Below are positions 20,532 through 60,513 of a stretch of 61,867 bases of DNA, one piece after another (the first letter of the stretch is position 1; the number at the start of each line of letters is the position of its first letter). The notes below the pieces were generated by a model that saw only the letters and a list, made by a program, of their open reading frames with translations, was not told the origin of the DNA and made no database searches. The translations under genes and the position numbers were made by a program. Location: positions 1-61,867 of the IMG/VR virus record IMGVR_UViG_3300025570_000015; one strand, 5' to 3'. Origin of the DNA: a virus (lineage: Duplodnaviria; Caudoviricetes).

Positions 20532-21024
20532 CGGATACATCCTCGTAATCTGCGTCAATCGTCTTTGCTTCACGCTCACGATCTTCGCGGTCTATTGCCG
20601 CCAAATCTGAATTAACTTTGCGTAGGGCGTCTAAATGCATGTCGCCCACGGATATTGTCACGTTTGTCTGGGGTCTGTTGCCGTATCGCTCTTGGTTGTA
20701 CGAGCCTGCCATGAATTTACGCCACTGCACCTTCTCTCGTGTGGCGGCTATTTCACTGCTGGTTGAGCCGCCATCCAAGTCATCTACCATTGTTAAGCCT
20801 TGCTCTACGAGTGCATCCGCTGCCTCTTGGCGGGCTTTGGCTAGGGCGTTGCCATACTCAGGGATAGTCTTGAGGGATGTGCTAAGATATTGCCTCGAGC
20901 AGTCATATTCTTTCGCAAGGGCTGTGAGGGTATTGCCAGAAGCTATCTGCTCAAACAAGTATTCAGCGCCGCCTTTGCTCAGTACATCAGCGAGTATTCT
21001 CCTGCGTAACGCTTTGCCTGCCAT
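20524..21024 (-). CDS. terS: Terminase small subunit
   Basis: N-terminal HTH (QIASGNTLTALAKEY), helical core, ERYG motif; directly upstream of and overlapping TerL. Confidence 0.8.
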   Translation of the reverse strand: MAGKALRRRILADVLSKGGAEYLFEQIASGNTLTALAKEYDCSRQYLSTSLKTIPEYGNALAKARQEAADALVEQGLTMVDDLDGGSTSSEIAATREKVQWRKFMAGSYNQERYGNRPQTNVTISVGDMHLDALRKVNSDLAAIDREDREREAKTIDADYEDVSDE

Positions 21025-21246
21025 TGATGCTCTCCTATTTTTTTTAAATTTTACAGTAGTTGTGCGTTATATTGCAAGGGGTGTGGGGGGGCTAATTTTT
21101 GGCTCTCGTGTGCGTGAGATTATACACACACACTACCCCCGTACAATCCGTTGACGGGGGGGCTTCCTCGCTGCGCCAGATGTGTAGTTTCGCCTAAATG
21201 GAACAACGCATAGCTCATATTGGCTGTATATTGACCGATATTGGGC

Positions 21247-21259
21247 TAACCTATTGATA
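21247..21259. promoter_or_regulatory. IHF binding site
   Basis: TAACCTATTGATA matches the IHF consensus YAANNNNTTGATW; conserved at 57386. Confidence 0.6.
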
Positions 21260-21289
21260 TCATTAGATATACTGTGGATTTACCTGTGT

Positions 21290-21317
21290 ATGTCCGATAA
21301 TGTATATTATGTTAACT
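21290..21317 (+). other. dif: dif-like XerC/XerD recombination site (candidate attP)
   Basis: ATGTCCGATAA-TGTATA-TTATGTTAACT; 19 contiguous nt identical to E. coli dif (GGTGCGCATAA TGTATA TTATGTTAAAT). Confidence 0.85.
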
Positions 21318-21448
21318 TTCAGTTTATCCGAAAGTATTGACTATAGATTTGCTTATTGCTACGCGGATGCGCGCCTGTAACAGTGCGCCAATGTGCTTTA
21401 TCGCACGCAATCTACACGCATTACCCACGCTGTTATGCCGCCAGTAAG

Positions 21449-21652
21449 TCAATGTACTGTCTGCTCTGCTTGCTCTAGCACTTGCTCGTGCAGCTCTATG
21501 AGCGCCTCTGCTAACGATTGTAGCACAGTCTGAGCTGGCACAATGGTAAGCCTATCAGTTAAATAGTCGCACAGCTCGTTAAGCTCGTTGTCCGCATCAT
21601 CACTGTCATCACAATGTAAATCTAATGTTAAGTTGATGATAAATTCAGACAA
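21449..21652 (-). CDS. Small acidic hypothetical protein
   Basis: 67 aa, TTG start with AGGAG RBS; conserved at 57588. Confidence 0.6.
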   Translation of the reverse strand: MSEFIINLTLDLHCDDSDDADNELNELCDYLTDRLTIVPAQTVLQSLAEALIELHEQVLEQAEQTVH

Positions 21653-21664
21653 TGTCTTGCTCCT

Positions 21665-21770
21665 TGAAATGTGGGCGTGCAGTGAGGAAAGATAACCGCA
21701 CGCCCTAGTTAAGCGGGCATCGCATTGAAATGCAAAACAATGCGTCGGGAGGAGGAGAACCCGCTAACTA
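21665..21770 (-). ncRNA. Putative structured antisense sRNA
   Basis: Stems gggcgtgc/gcacgccc, cgcattg/caatgcg and agcggg/cccgct; conserved at 57805-57909; upstream promoter; loops complementary to phage RBS/start regions. Confidence 0.65.
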
Positions 21771-21771
21771 T

Positions 21772-21800
21772 ACTATGCCCCATGAAGGGCTGTTGTTCAA
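21772..21800 (-). promoter_or_regulatory. Sigma70-like promoter of the sRNA
   Basis: Minus strand TTGAAC-N17-CATAGT; the right copy has TTGATC-N17-CATAGT. Confidence 0.5.
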
Positions 21801-21802
21801 GC

Positions 21803-22096
21803 CTATCCAACCTCATTTGATAGCTCGTGAGCCAGCGCAAGGTAGCCGCACCCATCAATGCTACTATCCTCGTGCGACCCATTGCGTAACCTCGCAATCT
21901 TCAGCAGCGCCATCATGTTTGCCACGTCAGCCGCATTGATCCGCGTGCCAGTGTAAGCCGACCACATACTCGCAATACATCCAAAGTTATCCTGCGCGCT
22001 TCCGTACTGCCTCGCCCTATCCCCGTTGATCAATTGCTTTGCCGTGTCCAATACCTCAGACCTCATCATACCATCACTACTCATCTGCTTAACCAT
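21803..22096 (-). CDS. DUF6378-like phage protein
   Basis: LINGDRARQYG...NF..IA.MWSAY...MALLKIAR...DS.IDGCGY pattern. Confidence 0.7.
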   Translation of the reverse strand: MVKQMSSDGMMRSEVLDTAKQLINGDRARQYGSAQDNFGCIASMWSAYTGTRINAADVANMMALLKIARLRNGSHEDSSIDGCGYLALAHELSNEVG

Positions 22097-22199
22097 TGTT
22101 AATACCCCGTTTCCCTAGCTCGTCCCTCGCTTGCCACCAAGCCAGACATTTGTTGTTCTTTTCTTTCATCTTATGTTCCATAATTCTTTACCCCGATTT

Positions 22200-22355
22200 T
22201 ACCCTACTATTATTTACCTACTATTATATTACACCTATAGGTGTAATAATATAATAATAGGTTTGGTACGAGCTATTATTAATGATTAATAGGTTATGCT
22301 CTAAGTCATTGATATTGTTATTATTAATGCCAATTAATAGGTAATTAATAGGTAT
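22200..22355. other. Putative replication origin
   Basis: AT-rich; 22-bp perfect palindrome at 22227-22248; ATTAATAGGT repeats at 22285, 22333 and 22344; IHF box TAAGTCATTGATA at 22302; directly downstream of the primase-helicase. Confidence 0.65.
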
Positions 22356-22359
22356 CATT

Positions 22360-24237
22360 TTACTTCACTTTACCAAAACTATCGGTAAACCATATAAATC
22401 CCTCATTTTGGACAATATGACCGCCGCCAATTAGGCCATTGTAAGCTTGTTTGTACGTGCTAGTTGGATTGCTCGCGGATACTTTGCCCATGAAGTGCGA
22501 CTTGATTTCTTCCTCATTTATGCACCAATACGTGTTGGGTTCAGGCCAACCAACGCCAGCAGGGTTAGATTTGCCAACACCCTCGCCTCGCAATTGCTGG
22601 AAGCACGTCTTAAATAAGATCTGCTGCTTGCCCTTAATAGCTTTCTTATTGGCGGTTTCAATATCATCACTGCTTGCCGGCACAATCACGCACGTTGTCA
22701 CTGGATCGCCGTCAGCGTCATGCCCTAGCTCGATGACATTCAACTTAAAGTGAAACTTACGCCCACCCTCGAGATCTCTCTGCTTGGTGGACAACGCAGT
22801 GCGCAAGCCTGTCGCCTCGTCGTAACTCAGCTCTATCTCAGTCTCAACAGCAGCTCTCAGTGAACTATGACCACGAGCCTTTGCGTCCAAGTTCTTGCCA
22901 GAGTGATGCACGAGCAATAGATGAGCGCCCGTCTCGCCGCGTATCCTGTCACACGCAGCTATCACAGCCGTTGATGATGCAGGCGAGTTCTCATCACCGC
23001 CCGGCATTGATCTGGATAGCGTATCAACGATAATCATTGCGATGTCGCCATGCGCTCTCTTCACCTCGTCGCATAAGTCTATGATAAGCTGCACGTCAGC
23101 GTTTTCCTCAAGTAAATTCACTGGCAATGCACGCATAGCTAATTTAGCCTCATGCTCTGGATATTGCTGGCGTAAGGCCACGATCCTATTATGCGTTGTC
23201 ATACCGCCCTCAAGAGCCAGAAACAGCACCACACCGCCCTTTACCTTATTGCCATGCCAATCCTGCCCAGCAGATACATGCCAAGCCACATCCTGCACAA
23301 AGAATGACTTACCAACATTGCTTGGCCCATACACCATTGATAGCTGCCCAGCGCCAAACCAACCCTTGACAAGATAACTCCTGTCTAGCTGTGGTACTGC
23401 GTCGCCCGGAAAGAATACCTGATCTAACAAGCTTTTCACTTCCAATGCCTTGGCAGTCGCCTCTTTGCCCTGATTAATCCACATATCAGAGAAGTCCCAG
23501 CCGCCAATCTCTGGCACAATAGATTGCACCCCATGATCAGCAACGCATTTCTCAATCGCTTTTAAGCCTGCCTCGTCATTATCACCCGCAATTACCAAAC
23601 GCAAATTAGGACGTGCCTCTAACAGCTCACCTATCACAGCCGTCATATTGCCCGCAGATAATGCAAATACTGCCGGCCTACCCGTCGCCATATTCACTGA
23701 CATTGCAGTTGCCCATCCCTCGCATATGTAAACCAGATCATCTAATTTGCCGCCAATTACGCTAAAATTACCCACAACAGGCATTCCCGCAGAAAATTTC
23801 TTTGCGCCTGTCGGATTAATGTTCTGCGTGCCTACACGCTTACCCTTGGCATTAATGACCGGGATAACCAATATGTCACCCTTTATATCGGCATTGCCAA
23901 GCCCGATCTTTTTCTTAACCAAATATGGATGCGTAGCCTCTGCCTCTGGTTCAGGCCAACTTATGTTATATTCTTTTGTCATAGGCTTCTCATTCTCGTC
24001 AGGCCATAGCCTCTGCCTTCGCAGCGCATCTTTTATGCCAGCAAAGTCTGAGCATTTACGGCAGCTCACCATCACGCAGTTCTGAGCATCTTCCCTAATC
24101 CAGAACCTATCTTCACCCTGACATACCGGGCAAGCGCCATGATATTCGCCAATAGCCGTCTTTTTCAATGATAGTGCGCTTATAATTTTATCTGAGTATC
24201 TATCCCAGCTTGCATTTGGAAATTTCGTATTTTGCAT
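22360..24237 (-). CDS. Primase-helicase (Zn finger + TOPRIM + RecA/AAA_25 helicase + C-terminal wHTH)
   Basis: CPVC..DRF...CRKC zinc finger; CEGWATA and AGDND TOPRIM motifs; GPSNVGKS Walker A; IIVDT Walker B; VHHSGK and RGHSSL. Confidence 0.9.
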   Translation of the reverse strand: MQNTKFPNASWDRYSDKIISALSLKKTAIGEYHGACPVCQGEDRFWIREDAQNCVMVSCRKCSDFAGIKDALRRQRLWPDENEKPMTKEYNISWPEPEAEATHPYLVKKKIGLGNADIKGDILVIPVINAKGKRVGTQNINPTGAKKFSAGMPVVGNFSVIGGKLDDLVYICEGWATAMSVNMATGRPAVFALSAGNMTAVIGELLEARPNLRLVIAGDNDEAGLKAIEKCVADHGVQSIVPEIGGWDFSDMWINQGKEATAKALEVKSLLDQVFFPGDAVPQLDRSYLVKGWFGAGQLSMVYGPSNVGKSFFVQDVAWHVSAGQDWHGNKVKGGVVLFLALEGGMTTHNRIVALRQQYPEHEAKLAMRALPVNLLEENADVQLIIDLCDEVKRAHGDIAMIIVDTLSRSMPGGDENSPASSTAVIAACDRIRGETGAHLLLVHHSGKNLDAKARGHSSLRAAVETEIELSYDEATGLRTALSTKQRDLEGGRKFHFKLNVIELGHDADGDPVTTCVIVPASSDDIETANKKAIKGKQQILFKTCFQQLRGEGVGKSNPAGVGWPEPNTYWCINEEEIKSHFMGKVSASNPTSTYKQAYNGLIGGGHIVQNEGFIWFTDSFGKVK

Positions 24238-24258
24238 TTTATTCCTTCCTCAGTTTAT

Positions 24259-24333
24259 CGGACATGGTGGACATGTCTCGCAAATGTCCTGTCGTGTCCG
24301 TATGACAAAACCTCGTAAAGTTCTGTCATACGG
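24259..24333. promoter_or_regulatory. Tandem hairpins upstream of the primase RBS
   Basis: cggaca..ggacat/atgtcc..tgtccg and ccgtatgaca/tgtcatacgg; compensatory changes in the right copy. Confidence 0.6.
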
Positions 24334-26314: not shown

Positions 26315-26511
26315 TCTACAACATCCGACGCAATTATTTCAGCTTCAGCCTCATTGTCTGGCTTTGCAACTTCCACGCCCGCTTTGGTTGCTTCCATATA
26401 TGAAGCCATGCGAACAAACGAGCTGAAAGGCAATGCAGATTTATGCGCAGCCTTTGCCACAGCATCATATTGCTGCTCGCTAAAATTAATTAATACTCTT
26501 TTATCAACCAT
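26311..26511 (-). CDS. Ribbon-helix-helix-like transcription regulator
   Basis: KRVLINFSEQQYDAVAKAA...FSSFVRMA; first gene of the leftward early operon; start set at MVDKRV. Confidence 0.55.
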   Translation of the reverse strand: MVDKRVLINFSEQQYDAVAKAAHKSALPFSSFVRMASYMEATKAGVEVAKPDNEAEAEIIASDVVE

Positions 26512-26603
26512 TTTAAATCTCCTTGGGTCTGATAAATTTAGCAATAAAGCAATGTAAATAGATGCACAAGTACATTATGATATAAAAATGATATATAAAG
26601 TGT

Positions 26604-26631
26604 TTGACCCCCACGCAAAAATACTTATAAT
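26604..26631 (+). promoter_or_regulatory. Strong sigma70 promoter of the rightward early operon
   Basis: TTGACC-N16-TATAAT. Confidence 0.7.
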
Positions 26632-26665
26632 GGCTGTATAAATGCAAAATATGAGGAAATATAAA

Positions 26666-27582: not shown

Positions 27583-27698
27583 TGAACATCACAATGATCA
27601 AAGACGGATTGGCTATGGCATTATTTGCTGTAGCCGCCGTACACTTGCCAGAGATTATAGTTTTTCTGGATCAATTTATTAATGTTTGGGGGAGATAA
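27582..27698 (+). CDS. 38-aa hydrophobic peptide (not in the ORF track)
   Basis: MNITMIKDGLAMALFAVAAVHLPEIIVFLDQFINVWGR; TAATG coupling at both ends. Confidence 0.55.
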   Translation: MNITMIKDGLAMALFAVAAVHLPEIIVFLDQFINVWGR

Positions 27699-28375
27699 TG
27701 GCTACACTAAAAAAATTAAAATCTGACTATGAGTTTTGGAGTGGCGCTTATGCTGATGTTGCTTGTAGTGCTGATTTAAAAGGTATTGATAGGCTTAATG
27801 ATCAAGCTGAAGCCTCACGTTCGCTTGCTGTAGATGCATTTAATGCTTACTTGGATGAACTAAAAAACCAAGAAAAAGTCAAAAAAACCAGAGAAGCATT
27901 AGATCAAGTCATGGATACAATTGCGCCAACAGAAACACCTTTTTTTGCAAAACCAAAACTACTGACAAGTAATGACCAAAAAATGACAATATCTTTAATT
28001 GAAAAAATGGATGAATTGAAGTTAAAGATATTCTTATTCCATAATCTTAAAAATATTGACCCACATTTATATAAATTATTGTTTACAGAAATAGATAAAA
28101 ATAAATTTCCAGTCAGAGTTAAAAATTGTTTTTTCCATACATTTAAATTTGAAGTCTTTCATTATGATTTAATATTAAGAAACGATAAGTTTTTTAAATA
28201 TATACCAAATTTTGGCAAAAAATCATTAAAACTCGTAAAAGAATATTTAGATGAATACGGCTTGAAGTTAAATACAGATTTAAAAGATATTAAATATGAA
28301 GCGTTAAAATCTTTAAACCTTATTAATTTAAAGCATGATTATTTGTTTGTTGAAAAAAGAGGTTTTGTTCAATGA
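27698..28375 (+). CDS. Early protein with RNA polymerase alpha-CTD-like domain
   Basis: FPVRVKNCF...DLI...IPNFGKKSLKLVKEYLDEYGLKL resembles RpoA CTD (LSVRSANCL...PNFGRKSL.EIK..L...GL.L). Confidence 0.7.
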   Translation: MATLKKLKSDYEFWSGAYADVACSADLKGIDRLNDQAEASRSLAVDAFNAYLDELKNQEKVKKTREALDQVMDTIAPTETPFFAKPKLLTSNDQKMTISLIEKMDELKLKIFLFHNLKNIDPHLYKLLFTEIDKNKFPVRVKNCFFHTFKFEVFHYDLILRNDKFFKYIPNFGKKSLKLVKEYLDEYGLKLNTDLKDIKYEALKSLNLINLKHDYLFVEKRGFVQ

Positions 28376-52303: not shown

Positions 52304-53905
52304 TTAATAAGATAGTAGCCCACGTTCTAACTCTTGTTGTTTTTTATATTCTTGCATAGCGGTCAATACACCCGGTGCTAATAATCCAGCAGCAGTTAAA
52401 TTTTTTAAATGTTTAAATTCTGGATCAAATCTTGCAAATTTTGACCTTAATGTTGTTGGGTCAAATGTAACTGCTGTTGTCGCCATCTCTGGGCTTAGTC
52501 CAATATGATCTGGGTGAGGAAACTGACTTCCAATATCAACGACATCTTTAATAAGTAATCCGCTACTATCTGTAGTTCTTGCCGCCCTAGCCGCCTCTGG
52601 AGATGATGCCCAAGATGCCCAATCTTGTGTCATATCTGATATTTTTTTACGAGTAGGTATTCCATCTTGTTTGAAATTCATTCTAGCGTACTTTGGGGCG
52701 TCACCCCAATTTGCACCTTCAAAATTTGTTTTTGCGTAATTATCTGTTTTACCTAACAATGGGTAAACTGCACCTCTATCATCGTATAGATTGAAAGCAT
52801 CTGTTGAAAAATCTCGACCAGCAGTAGGATTTTCAGTTGGGCTTCCAGCATACCTATTCGCATTATACCTATCTGTTGTACTCCAAATGCCAGTGTCGTA
52901 ATCTTGACCGCCAGCTATGTCAGCATCCATAGCTTTTATTCCACCTTGTCCGCCATGAAATAATTCTTTGTTATAGCCAAGCTGGTCAGCTCGTAACTTT
53001 CTAGCGCCCTCACTCATATTTAACGGCGTGTTATTAAACATATATTGTGGGTCTGCCATAGACATCATTTCGTCAGTAACATACTTTGCCTCACCCTTTG
53101 CGCGTAGCTCTAGAATTTCTTTTGCAGTTTTTTCTGCTTTATTTTTAGGCTTGGGTAGTGATGGGCTAGAAAGAGCATCAAGTATACCTTTAACCTCTGA
53201 ATTAAAATTTGGATCGTAATCAAGCAGTGGCGTCGATGTGTCAGCGCCATCTAAATCAATAAAACGCACTTTTGCATTTTGCACGCCCTCTTCCGCCACT
53301 TTAGTCAACCTATGATGTCCATCTTGAACAAACATTTTTCCGTTTTTTCTAACGACAAAGGGCAACTCACCAGCGCTAGAAGATGTAGTAGAGAAATCTG
53401 GGTTTACTGTAGGTTGCGTAGCATAAATCTGATTAATCGGCACTTCCTCAACACGAGAAGTAAGTGCTGATACACGTCGATTTTCTTCTTTATTTAATGT
53501 GGGTTTTTCTACATCTCTAAACGTCCAGCCTGTTTGTGTTGGGTCAGCTTTAGGATTTAACTTTATATTACCAAAAGACATGCCCAGCGCGTTTGGATCA
53601 ACTTCAATCCGTTTAGCTTTATCAAGTAATCCCCTTGCGCCCTTCTTAATGCCGGCAGCCATAGCGTCGCCAAGGCCGGGGACTAATCCAACGAGAGCTG
53701 CGCCGCCTAGAGCTGCCACCATTGCATAATTAGGGTCTGGCTTTTGTAATTCGTCGTAAACTTCTTTGGCTGCCATAGCGTCGCCAATGATAGGCGTGGC
53801 TTCAGCTACAAATCTTGCGGCGTCCATTGCTGTAATACCTTGGTATGGCGTCGCCGTTCTCTTTCCAGAGAAACTCATTGGCCTTTGTTGATCTAGTAAG
53901 CCCAT
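52304..53905 (-). CDS. Polymorphic/polyvalent effector with ParB/Srx-like and ADP-ribosyltransferase-like domains
   Basis: VPINQIYATQ...FVQDGHHRL (ParB/Srx); LFHG...IWSTTDRYNANRYA...VYPL...FDPTTLRSKFARFDP (ART-PolyVal-like). Confidence 0.7.
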   Translation of the reverse strand: MGLLDQQRPMSFSGKRTATPYQGITAMDAARFVAEATPIIGDAMAAKEVYDELQKPDPNYAMVAALGGAALVGLVPGLGDAMAAGIKKGARGLLDKAKRIEVDPNALGMSFGNIKLNPKADPTQTGWTFRDVEKPTLNKEENRRVSALTSRVEEVPINQIYATQPTVNPDFSTTSSSAGELPFVVRKNGKMFVQDGHHRLTKVAEEGVQNAKVRFIDLDGADTSTPLLDYDPNFNSEVKGILDALSSPSLPKPKNKAEKTAKEILELRAKGEAKYVTDEMMSMADPQYMFNNTPLNMSEGARKLRADQLGYNKELFHGGQGGIKAMDADIAGGQDYDTGIWSTTDRYNANRYAGSPTENPTAGRDFSTDAFNLYDDRGAVYPLLGKTDNYAKTNFEGANWGDAPKYARMNFKQDGIPTRKKISDMTQDWASWASSPEAARAARTTDSSGLLIKDVVDIGSQFPHPDHIGLSPEMATTAVTFDPTTLRSKFARFDPEFKHLKNLTAAGLLAPGVLTAMQEYKKQQELERGLLSY

Positions 53906-57804: not shown

Positions 57805-57909
57805 GTTATGTGGGCGTGCAGTGAGGAAAGACAACCGCACGCCCCAGTTAAGCGGGCGTCGCATTGAAATGCAAAACAATGCGTCGGGAGGAGGAGAACC
57901 CGCTAACTA
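57805..57909 (-). ncRNA. Putative antisense sRNA (right copy)
   Basis: Same stems and loops as 21665-21770; promoter at 57911-57939. Confidence 0.65.
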
Positions 57910-58496: not shown

Positions 58497-60377
58497 TTAG
58501 CTCATTTTCCCGAAATCATCGCAAAACCATATATAGCCTTCATTTTGCACAATATGACCAGCACTTGTGAGGCCTGCAATTGACTGCTTGTAGGTTTGTG
58601 ATGGGTTCGCTACGCCAGATACTTTACCCATGAAATGCTTCTTAATATCCTCCTCTTTAATAACCCAGAACGTGCTAGGTTCAGGCCAACCAACGCCGGC
58701 AGGATTGGACATGCCAATGCCCTCGCCTCGCAGCTGTTGGAAGCACGTCTTAAATAATATCTGATTCTTGCCCTTTATGGCTTTCTTATTGGCAGCTTCA
58801 ACGTCATCACTGCTTGCCGGCACGATCACACATGTCGTCACAGCATCGCCGTCCATATCATGCCCTAGCTCAATTACATTCAACTTAAAGTGAAACTTAC
58901 GCCCACCCTCCAAGTCTCTCTGCTTGGTGGCTAATGCAGTACGCAAGCCCGTCGCCTCGTCGTATGATAGCTCTATCTCAGTTTCCACAGCAGCTCTCAG
59001 TGAGCTATGCCCACGCGCCTTTGCGTCTAAGTTCTTGCCAGAGTGATGCACAAGCAATAGGTGGGCATCAGTCTCACCGCGTATCTTATCACACGCAGCT
59101 ATCACAGCCGTTGATGATGCAGGCGAGTTCTCATCGCCGCCGGGCATTGATCTCGATAGCGTATCCACGATAATCATAGCAATATCGCCATGCGCTTGTT
59201 TAACCTCGTCACACAAATCAATGATCAGCTGCACGTCAGCGTTTTCCTCAAGCAAATTCACTGGCAATGCACGCATAGCTAATTTAGCCTCATGCTCTGG
59301 ATATTGCTGGCGTAAGGCTACGATCCTATTATGCGTCGTCATACCGCCCTCAAGAGCTAAAAACAGCACGACGCCTCCCTTAACCTTATTGCCATGCCAA
59401 TCTTGCCCCGCAGATACATGCCACGCCACATCTTGCACAAAGAATGACTTACCAACATTGCTTGGCCCATACACCATCGAGAGCTGCCCAGCGCCAAACC
59501 ATCCTTTGACAAGATAACTCCTGTCTAGCTGTGGCATTGCATCGCCCGGAAAGAACACCTGATCAAGTAAGCTCTTCACTTCCAATGCCTTAGCAGTCGC
59601 TTCTTTACCTCGATTAACCCACATATCATTGAAGTCCCATCCGCCAACATCAGGCACAATAGACTTCACACCATGATCTGCCACGCATTTTTCAATGGCT
59701 TTAATGCCTGCCTCGTCGTTATCACCAGCCACCACTATGCGTAAATTAGGTCTAGCTTCAAGCAGCTCACCTATCACGGCAGTCATATTGCCCGCAGATA
59801 ATGCGAATACTGTTGGCCTATCTGTCGCCATATGCACTGACATTGCAGTTGCCCAACCTTCGCAAACGTAAATCAAATCGTTTAATTTACCACCAATTAC
59901 ACTAAAATTACCAACAACTGGCATACCTGACGAAAATTTCTTTGCGCCTGTCGGATTAATGCTCTGCGTGCCTACACGCTTACCTTTGGCATTTATTACA
60001 GGTATATCTAATATGTCACCCTTTATAGACGCATTGCCTAATCCAATCTTTTTCTTAATCAGGTATGGATGCGTTGCTTCTAGCTCTGCTTCAGGCCAAC
60101 TTATTGTATATTCTCTCGTCATTGGCTTCTCATTCTCATCAGGCCATAAACTCTGCCTTCGCAGCGCATCCTTTATGCCTGCATAATCTGAGCATTTACG
60201 GCACGTAACCATCACTTCATTATCAGACGTTTCCTTAATCCAGAACCGATCTTCACCCTGACATACCGGGCAAGCACCATGATATTCGCCTATGGCAGTC
60301 TTTTTCAATGATAATGCACTAATAATTTTATCTGAATATCTATCCCAGCTTGCATTTGGAAATTTCGTGTTTTGCAT
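58497..60377 (-). CDS. Primase-helicase (right copy)
   Basis: Homolog of 22360-24237. Confidence 0.9.
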   Translation of the reverse strand: MQNTKFPNASWDRYSDKIISALSLKKTAIGEYHGACPVCQGEDRFWIKETSDNEVMVTCRKCSDYAGIKDALRRQSLWPDENEKPMTREYTISWPEAELEATHPYLIKKKIGLGNASIKGDILDIPVINAKGKRVGTQSINPTGAKKFSSGMPVVGNFSVIGGKLNDLIYVCEGWATAMSVHMATDRPTVFALSAGNMTAVIGELLEARPNLRIVVAGDNDEAGIKAIEKCVADHGVKSIVPDVGGWDFNDMWVNRGKEATAKALEVKSLLDQVFFPGDAMPQLDRSYLVKGWFGAGQLSMVYGPSNVGKSFFVQDVAWHVSAGQDWHGNKVKGGVVLFLALEGGMTTHNRIVALRQQYPEHEAKLAMRALPVNLLEENADVQLIIDLCDEVKQAHGDIAMIIVDTLSRSMPGGDENSPASSTAVIAACDKIRGETDAHLLLVHHSGKNLDAKARGHSSLRAAVETEIELSYDEATGLRTALATKQRDLEGGRKFHFKLNVIELGHDMDGDAVTTCVIVPASSDDVEAANKKAIKGKNQILFKTCFQQLRGEGIGMSNPAGVGWPEPSTFWVIKEEDIKKHFMGKVSGVANPSQTYKQSIAGLTSAGHIVQNEGYIWFCDDFGKMS

Positions 60378-60398
60378 TTTATCCCTTCCTCAATTTAT

Positions 60399-60513
60399 CG
60401 GACACGTTGGACATGTCCCGCTTTTGTCTTGTCCTGTCTCGGACATAGTGGACATGTCTCGCAAATGTCCTGTCGTGTCCGTTAGACAAAACCTCGATCA
60501 GTTCTGTCTAACG
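60399..60513. promoter_or_regulatory. Hairpin cluster upstream of primase (with duplicated unit)
   Basis: Two cggaca..ggacatgtc units plus a cgttagaca/tgtctaacg stem. Confidence 0.55.

Follow-up and report, generated by a model that had tools for sequence, protein, structure and literature searches.

A structured RNA family of marine phages with an exposed anti-Shine-Dalgarno motif and, in one subclade, a loop complementary to early-gene starts

To our knowledge, few phage-encoded trans-acting small RNAs (sRNAs) are understood. The C4 RNA of phage P1 and the CI RNA of phage P4 are released from a leader by RNase P, and their main target is the operon that encodes them; Rfam contains a C4 model. 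In phage T4, the translation of several early mRNAs is shut off by a protein, RegA, which occupies their initiation regions, and in plasmid copy control CopA and RNA I are cis-encoded, fully complementary antisense RNAs. On the bacterial side, the Cuckoo RNA family of Rhizobiales and Rhodobacterales is built of two to four adjacent hairpins, each with a loop carrying CCUCCUCCC (PMC4615179). CU-rich stretches of these cuckoo-type (CcsR/NfeR1) alphaproteobacterial sRNAs pair with Shine-Dalgarno (SD) sequences and block 30S binding, as described in part in PMC4615179, a paper whose main text does not use the word 'phage'. We found in the literature no phage-encoded sRNA of marine alphaproteobacterial phages, nor a phage-encoded sRNA with a cuckoo-type motif. 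Here, we describe a phage RNA element that carries such a motif and compare it with these systems.

The window analysed is an entire IMG/VR virus record of 61,867 bases, with a GC content of 38-48%, in which a scan found no tRNA or tmRNA. It spans about 1.7 units of a phage genome of ~36 kb, as two related but distinct genome versions, whose aligned blocks are 77-88% identical, with mosaic gaps. A long leftward (minus-strand) gene series starts at a divergent promoter region near 26545-26640 and begins with a RuvC-like resolvase, an exonuclease, a T7 gp2.5-like single-strand-binding protein (SSB), a primase-helicase and a DUF6378 protein; after these come the element, an acidic ORF of 67 aa and 425 nt of non-coding sequence, then the terminase and structural genes, with holin and endolysin last. 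The rightward early operon is short and has a promoter of its own (Table 1). The element sits near the packaging genes, at the border of the replication genes and the downstream module. The carriers are uncultured marine phages, probably with a Rhodobacteraceae host, to go by the weak evidence of the binning of two different element-bearing phage contigs, both short, in one Rhodobacteraceae metagenome-assembled genome (MAG). The nearest cultured relatives are an Octadecabacter virus (by the DUF6378 protein) and Sinorhizobium phage phiM5 (by the large terminase, 54%). The stretch is present in three metatranscriptome runs, as contigs only; in run X1, the parts 20995-21415 and 26386-26654 are uncovered, a pattern that is inconsistent between runs.

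Two copies of the element lie in the window. A 151-nt query around the left copy is 100% identical to the left and 93% to the right copy, compared with 84% between the copies of the surrounding 3.2-kb block, so the element is better conserved than its flanks. The left copy folds at -43.1 kcal/mol (z = -4.1), and 0 of 200 shuffles are as stable. The initial annotation had described an element of ~100 nt, kept in both copies, with three stems and three loops. Length, duplication, stems and the reading of the three unpaired stretches are all present in the sequence, but the first of these stretches, UUCUCCUCCUCCC, is an internal loop of the outer helix and not a hairpin loop. Hairpin P2 is nested in helix P1, which gives the RNA two domains and not a series of adjacent hairpins. 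The exact 9-mer CCUCCUCCC, an anti-Shine-Dalgarno (aSD) motif, occurs once in the window's element, within the P1 internal loop.

Table 1. Features of the RNA element, its flanks and its candidate target sites in the window.
Feature	Position	Strand	Remarks
Structured RNA element, left copy, 102 nt	21666..21767	-	covariance model R1 108.9 bits, E 2.9e-23; fold z = -4.1
Structured RNA element, right copy	57805..57906	-	covariance model R1 104.5 bits
DUF6378 gene, 5' of element	21803..22096	-	PF19905, 105.2 bits
-35-like hexamer TTGAAC, directly after DUF6378 stop codon	21795..21800	-	TTGA invariant in 37/37 distinct upstream sequences
-10-like hexamer CATAGT, 17 nt after -35-like hexamer	21772..21777	-	CATA.T invariant in 37/37, fifth base variable
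Helix P1, encloses L1 and P2	21710..21767 (21767-21760 with 21717-21710)	-	compensatory pairs 3/8 (A2), 4/8 (A4)
L1, single-stranded UUCUCCUCCUCCCGA, contains exact CCUCCUCCC aSD motif	21745..21759	-	unpaired in consensus structure
Hairpin P2, loop UUUUGCAUUU at 21737-21728	21721..21744	-	compensatory pairs 4/7
Hairpin P3, 11 bp, CU-rich loop UAUCUUUCCUC at 21694-21684	21673..21705	-	compensatory pairs 7/11 (A2), 10/11 (A4)
67-aa acidic ORF, TTG start, AAGGAG at 21665-21660	21449..21652	-	always 3' of element
AAAUGCAAAA across primase-helicase start codon, left copy; UGAGGAA precedes	24230..24239	-	exact complement of P2 loop
P2-loop-complementary 10-mer at primase-helicase start, right copy	60370..60379	-	same 10-mer as left copy
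Rightward early promoter TTGACC-N16-TATAAT	26604..26631	+	11/12 match
Leader of rightward early transcript: AAAUGCAAAA at 26640-26649, UGAGGAAAUAUAA at 26652-26664 with SD of likely true start 26666	26640..26664	+	loop complementarity

Relatives were collected in several ways. The DUF6378 protein led to 42 loci, with the element 3' of the gene in those 84-97% identical; a 17-mer from the element found 36 stretches, comprising 24 true elements and 12 chance matches in coding sequence; and a two-part pattern search returned at least 115 stretches. From these came alignment A2, with 29 distinct core sequences from 76 loci among the matches listed, which fall into two subgroups. A second set, alignment A4, consists of 21 distinct metagenome rows in an alignment fitted to the covariance model. 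RNAalifold on the 29 distinct sequences of A2 recovers the three helices, with 98.5% of the cells paired and compensatory changes, on both sides of the pair, in 14 of the 26 pairs. The covariation score of 0.449 compares with 0.238 for shuffles (0/500 reach 0.449) and with 0.026-0.084 for slid controls. In A4, 18 of 26 pairs show compensatory changes. Because many changes separate the two subgroups, the independent events are fewer than the cells; several compensatory changes also occur within subgroups (in L009, L011, L082 and L122). Across the relatives, the stems vary and the loops stay constant, and the covariation support is unusually clean.

The same alignment settles the strand. G-U pairs stand at columns 27-52 (17 of 29 sequences) and 78-101 (11 of 29), and on the opposite strand they would be C-A mismatches, which fixes the RNA strand as minus. 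The proposal of a structured minus-strand RNA is thereby borne out in two sets of sequences, and an Rfam search and a covariation count, of the kind that had been suggested for it, gave supported helices and no family match at cut-off. Rfam has no match for the element at gathering thresholds; when positions 21300-22200 were scanned with cmscan at E up to 10, the sole response was ar14 (19.5 bits, E 0.31, cut-off 58.8). The element is a new, well-supported phage RNA family, absent from Rfam 15. Neither Octadecabacter virus DB2, which has the DUF6378 gene in common with the window, nor L012 contains an element by covariance model R1 (best scores 8.2 and 8.6 bits, E 0.79 and 0.65, respectively). 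L012 does carry a hairpin with a CU-rich loop and a terminator, which is unrelated to the element.

Model R1 was also used to find divergent forms, and with these the element falls into four groups. In the Rhodobacteraceae MAG named above, where one 3997-nt contig carries a typical element, it found a second, divergent copy (39.5 bits); this form, group 3, is also present on four IMG/VR contigs. The P2 loop UUUUGCAUUU is invariant in groups 1-2 and absent outside them. Group 3 has a P2 stem of ACACU/AGUGU with the loop UGAUUGCUC, and the tail after its P3 is U4 in most members, U5 in L204 and U6 in L203. Group 4 (L240, L241) lacks P2 altogether, which leaves P1 as a simple hairpin with CCUCCUCCC in its loop and the RNA as two adjacent hairpins; P3 has a U6 tail and a loop that is not rich in C and U. 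L240 is an aSD-loop hairpin and a terminator only. A scan for P1 and L1 with any P2 returned 48 stretches, of which seven were new: three true elements, all with the same loop, and four chance matches. The single feature common to all four groups is an unpaired, CU-rich aSD stretch of the CCUCCUCCC type. Basal relatives that lack P2 and have a U-tailed P3 imply that the ancestral unit was a promoter, an aSD hairpin and a terminator, arranged as in an sRNA gene; in the subgroup to which the window belongs, decay of the U-tract has left ACAUUUC. The idea that a replication-directed loop forms the core of the element does not survive this comparison, for that loop is replaced in group 3 and missing in group 4.

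In the groups that have it, the UUUUGCAUUU loop has complements among the phage's own sequences. The 10-mer AAATGCAAAA is matched six times in the window (expectation 0.78; no shuffle out of 100 has as many); two of the matches are the element copies, two the primase-helicase starts, one lies at 26640-26649, and the sixth, at 53270-53279, is internal. The P2-loop complement at the primase start and at the 5' end of the early transcript, as first noticed, is exact and is kept in all loop-carrying relatives that reach these sites, including every group 1-2 relative that extends to the primase start. In the rightward operon, it lies 8-9 nt after the -10 of the early promoter, and in some relatives it heads further early-left genes (ORFs of 253, 214 and 282 aa). 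Among the relatives' non-self contexts, 48 of 49 distinct ones are gene starts or the rightward early leader, and in the same proportion (48/49 distinct contexts outside the element) the 10-mer stands in the mRNA sense. Its ATG opens only 3-7 codons in five of the seven distinct rightward-leader contexts, which makes the 10-mer there a conserved non-coding leader and not a Met-Gln start. The spacing from the 10-mer to the SD sequence varies by 1-3 nt.

Weaker matches occur as well. Within the window, matches of at least 7 nt to the P2 loop occur at 4/8 early-region starts and at 1/42 others; the partial matches at the SSB (8 nt) and exonuclease (7 nt) starts, and the Met-Gln beginnings of these ORFs, were all confirmed. 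A 12-nt match in the right copy exists as described, although two of its bases are stem bases. The UGAGGAA 5' of the primase AUG pairs with the third loop, and the order of the sites is colinear with the order of the loops. At the early-right leader, TGAGGAAATATAA (26652-26664) is the claimed 12/13 match to the third loop, but it is no better than chance by count and is not kept in relatives with a different third loop. With up to two mismatches, the complement of the third loop has three matches in the window against 2.21 expected (37 of 100 shuffles equal it), and the complement of the first loop matches only itself. Held against shuffled controls, then, the loops part company: by count alone, only the 10-mer beats chance.

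Pairing energies give a mixed picture. Loop-by-loop duplex energies do not stand out clearly from the background, either over 50 start regions or over 14354 windows. Among those windows, the primase start region comes first for the L2+L3 duplex energy, by a margin of 0.5 kcal/mol, and third for all three loops together. A cofold model that allows nested pairing only, without loop-loop kissing, places the same region at the 26th percentile of the background and has as its best target the 28813 gene, reached via L1.

A further expectation had been that loops and targets would change together among relatives. Groups 3 and 4 have neither the UUUUGCAUUU loop nor the 10-mer in the contigs examined, the primase start included; this fits co-evolution, but effectively counts as one evolutionary event. 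In groups 1 and 2, conservation extends over the entire promoter and start regions, and the SSB start is unchanged, keeping AAAUGCAA, in groups without the UUUUGCAUUU loop. The loop of group 3 has no match at the primase start region. In nine loci, the 3.4 kb before the element were scanned for its complement at up to three mismatches, and eight of the loci have none there; three weak matches lie downstream. The one good complement of this loop (11/13, -15.1 kcal/mol) covers codons 9-13 of the exonuclease in L189, the only contig long enough. A 7-nt match of group 3 that resembles a start codon proved to be internal to the primase gene and was rejected.

With moderate confidence, we read the element as a trans-acting, cuckoo-like anti-SD sRNA that blocks translation initiation, including that of phage early genes through a loop gained in one subclade. 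The minus-strand RNA of ~100 nt would act in trans, its CU-rich stretches pairing with SD sequences and blocking the 30S subunit. In the subclade of the window, the P2 loop UUUUGCAUUU would add a second contact over the primase-helicase start codon, and it would also touch the rightward early mRNA at its 5' end; weaker contacts are predicted at the SSB and exonuclease starts. As the level of the RNA rises in lytic infection, it would damp or shut off the translation of early and replication genes; such early-gene shut-off during lytic growth is plausible. Host mRNAs with strong SD sequences may be hit as well. A more specific version, which we put forward tentatively, is that these phages carry their own cuckoo-type aSD sRNA as a dual switch. 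It would take over a CcsR/NfeR1-like host regulon, or compete for strong host ribosome-binding sites, and would in addition exert a RegA-like early shut-off through the inserted hairpin as RNA dosage rises with genome copy number.

How the RNA would be made bears on this reading and on its strongest rival. The initial annotation had placed a minus-strand promoter before the element, and a promoter-like site does stand at the base of the first helix, with TTGA and GGCATA.T invariant in all 37 distinct upstream sequences and with a variable spacer and four variable bases after the hexamer. Yet TTGAAC-N17-CATAGT is an 8/12 match, under the threshold of 9 used in the promoter scan, which did not list it. 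The right copy has TTGATC as its -35-like hexamer, and in groups 3 and 4 the equivalent site, equally far from P1, is TTGCAA-N17/18-TATGCT or TATGGT. Four nucleotides separate the -10-like hexamer from the first paired base of P1. The site would start transcription at the base of that helix; a start ~7 nt after the hexamer would fall on an A/G, the third or fourth base of P1. At the other end, P3 is followed in the window by ACAUUUC, with only three U, and the scan called no rho-independent terminator in the window; U-tails are seen in L203 (U6), L204 (U5) and L240 (U6).

These features make it a serious rival, in our estimate possible if somewhat unlikely, that the element works in cis on the small acidic ORF, as its 5' leader or attenuator, in which P3 would be a conditional terminator setting the level of the 65-67-aa protein and the CU-rich stretches would act on the ORF's own weak SD or bind a factor. 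The lack of a U-tract in the window, together with the 8/12 promoter match, is what gives the proposal its weight: without a U-tract after P3, read-through into the ORF is expected, and with the SD of the ORF starting 8 nt after P3, the RNA may exist only as its 5' UTR. Synteny points the same way. The element always lies between the DUF6378 gene and the ORF, with 7-15 nt from it to the SD of the ORF in each of the four subgroups, and element and ORF always occur together: 25 distinct homologues of the ORF stand 3' of an element, and a metagenome search with its protein gave 47 loci, on 28 of which the model was run, finding the element immediately 5' of the ORF in 28/28. A terminator-like P3 directly precedes the ORF in L203, L204 and L240. 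The ORF, which belongs to no Pfam or PHROG family, has TTG or GTG starts and a weak, AAGG-type SD. Against a local role, however, the SD and start codon are unpaired with the CU-rich stretches in consensus and single-sequence folds, and the sequence shows no evident antiterminator fold as an alternative. A local SD mask would need less than two long exposed aSD stretches and an invariant P2 loop, and the exact complement of that loop at early-gene starts and in a non-coding leader would be left unexplained.

Convergent genes of the lysozyme type (lysis genes) come after the ORF in groups 3 and 4, so that the element and the ORF end the leftward unit. For this reason, a late-operon leader or an HK022 put-like antitermination leader was set aside as a candidate, the two groups having only the small ORF before the convergent genes; a processive-antitermination leader of that kind heads a long operon that must read through terminators.

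The covariation of the helices also bears on a second, unlikely alternative, namely that the element is an RNA processing or stability block at an operon junction (e.g., an RNase E or RNase III site, or a protective hairpin at a 3' end) that pairs with no target. Its place at the junction of the replication genes with the downstream module suits such a role. In group 2, moreover, the two outermost P1 pairs covary, though a start ~7 nt after the -10-like hexamer would exclude them from the transcript, and a small hairpin in the promoter spacer shows partial compensatory change; both suggest transcription from upstream too, and the covarying outermost pairs, set against the predicted start, hint at read-through transcripts or processing. 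Transcription that enters from upstream and is followed by processing is thus possible. The spacer hairpin is broken in L004, L009 and L011, however, and stabiliser hairpins need neither invariant loops nor an aSD motif conserved across subgroups whose stems have diverged.

Far less probable is the role initially suggested, a stand-in for the CI repressor in a lysogen, by which the element would act as an RNA-based immunity factor like P1 C4 or P4 CI and silence replication and early genes in a prophage. It is true that the loops have complements in transcripts of the phage itself, at early and replication start regions, and that no recognisable CI-like repressor was found among the early proteins scanned. 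But Phage_integrase and Resolvase have 0 matches in the window, which covers ~1.7 genome units, and a scan of 185,579 species genomes gave one true match, the 3997-nt contig of a MAG mentioned above, which is all phage and has no host flanks. Furthermore, the targeting loop is missing or different in sister subgroups, and Rfam at E up to 10 answers with ar14 only, so we do not retain the suggestion. Least probable of all is action at the DNA level, as an origin, a packaging site or an operator whose inverted repeats and 10-mers bind proteins as double-stranded sites: the 10-mer just downstream of the rightward early promoter has a typical operator position and packaging genes are near, but G-U pairs are kept on one strand only, stems covary around fixed loops, and the mRNA-sense bias of the 10-mer outside the element speaks for RNA.

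Whatever its action, the RNA family is common in ocean viromes: contigs from IMG/VR and from metagenomes carry it by the dozen, and the two independent sets contain 29 and 21 distinct variants. If the trans-acting sRNA proposed here is right, it would represent an RNA route to early-gene shut-off and a virus borrowing the logic of a host sRNA family, and the phage RNA offers clear seed-target pairs that can be tested.

Among known systems, the Cuckoo family (RSs0680/CcsR, NfeR1/C14; Rfam ar14, RF02344) shares with the phage RNA a CCUCCUCCC-type motif in an exposed position and a modular, hairpin-based build. The last hairpin with a CU-rich loop, followed by a U-tail in some phage relatives, is as in the RNA of the putative host (G001:C134), the Rhodobacteraceae MAG with the two phage contigs, which carries, on a contig of the 100-kb class, a classical three-hairpin RNA whose loops include ACCUCCUCCC and AACCUCCUCCC and whose last hairpin has a U-tail. 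The ar14 model is the only one in Rfam to respond to the phage RNA (window 19.5 bits, group 3 25.9 bits), and the putative host's own cuckoo RNA, at 46.9 bits, likewise stays under the cut-off of 58.8. Model R1, conversely, does not recognise the host RNA (11.1 bits, E 0.16). The phage RNA differs from cuckoo RNAs in being phage-encoded and always linked to a small acidic ORF, in holding its motif in the P1 internal loop, and in having a nested middle hairpin whose loop is unrelated to the motif; the window's third loop has only UUUCCUC. The window's element thus has no adjacent-hairpin layout, and neither its P2 loop UUUUGCAUUU nor its P3 loop UAUCUUUCCUC contains CCUCCUCCC. The cuckoo likeness seen at the outset is therefore real at the level of the motif but fails the structural definition and the Rfam cut-off, and by this comparison we regard the phage RNA as sharing the motif and apparently the logic of the family without filing it as a member.

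Like P1 C4 and P4 CI, the element is a structured phage RNA with loops complementary to sites in its own early transcripts. Those phages, however, are temperate and the window is without sign of lysogeny; neither RNA has a sequence or structure match to the element in Rfam. The phage element is, moreover, preceded by a promoter-like site, and its universal feature is the aSD motif. T4 RegA would do the same job as the one proposed here, as a protein where the phage RNA would use base pairing. With CopA and RNA I, finally, the likeness would lie in loop-first pairing to the initiation region of a replication gene, which would give dosage-dependent feedback; the difference is that the phage RNA is trans-encoded, with seeds of 10-12 nt.

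The record holds two related phage versions (1-29454 and 29536-61867) that together amount to about 1.7 genome units, and it is not a single genome. Identity within aligned blocks is 77-88% between the two versions, and their alignment also shows non-homologous mosaic stretches and shifting offsets. Two strains have been assembled into the record, either in tandem or as a chimera.

Around the structured RNA element, we identified further features on the minus strand (see table). The spacer of the element's promoter-like site contains a hairpin that shows some compensatory change among relatives (GCCUU/AAGGC, GCCUC/GAGGC) and is disrupted in three of them (L004, L009, and L011). The small ORF (21449-21652), constantly linked to the element, is strongly acidic, as are its homologues; Cys14 and Cys28 are invariant among them, an LAE..IE motif is conserved, and neither the ORF nor its homologues matched any known family. 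Between this ORF and the small terminase gene lies a non-coding gap, enclosing a hairpin and an inverted repeat, that could contain a packaging site or a late promoter.

Farther from the element, the palindromes resembling GGACATGTCC are present in more copies in the right version than in the left, and may serve as an operator or as origin iterons. The early rightward protein scores 23.2 bits against the RNA polymerase alpha C-terminal domain, under the cut-off of 23.8, and may target host transcription.

Features accompanying the RNA element in the record
Feature	Position	Strand	Description
5-bp hairpin GCCCU/GGGGC	21777-21790	minus	within promoter-like spacer of the element
Non-coding gap, 425 nt	21025-21448	minus	no ORF >42 aa
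C6/G5 hairpin	near 21160-21135	minus	inside the 425-nt gap
GT-rich inverted repeat	near 21130-21105	minus	inside the 425-nt gap
Repeated GGACATGTCC-like palindromes	24250-24310 and 60395-60480	minus	upstream of primase-helicase gene
229-aa protein, early rightward	27686-28375	+	marginal RNA polymerase alpha C-terminal domain match

Hairpins were also noted outside the record. Two unrelated IMG/VR phage contigs (L057 and L061) each carry, near their match to a 17-mer of the element, a single hairpin with the element's CU-rich loop. It is located ~30 nt downstream of a TATAAT, has a U-rich tail behind it, and scores 14.5 bits with R1, the covariance model of the element. Phage-borne anti-Shine-Dalgarno hairpin RNAs may be more widely spread. 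In a more distant phage, a DUF6378 gene that is 68% identical is followed by a different small hairpin (L012:2744-2900), with the loop AUUCCUCCCAGAU and then a clear U-tailed terminator; R1 did not detect this hairpin. Finally, the putative host, a Rhodobacteraceae MAG, contains an sRNA of the classical three-hairpin cuckoo type (G001:C134:98407-98532; L193), which lies in AT-rich sequence and scores 46.9 bits against the Rfam cuckoo-sRNA model ar14, under the cut-off of 58.8.
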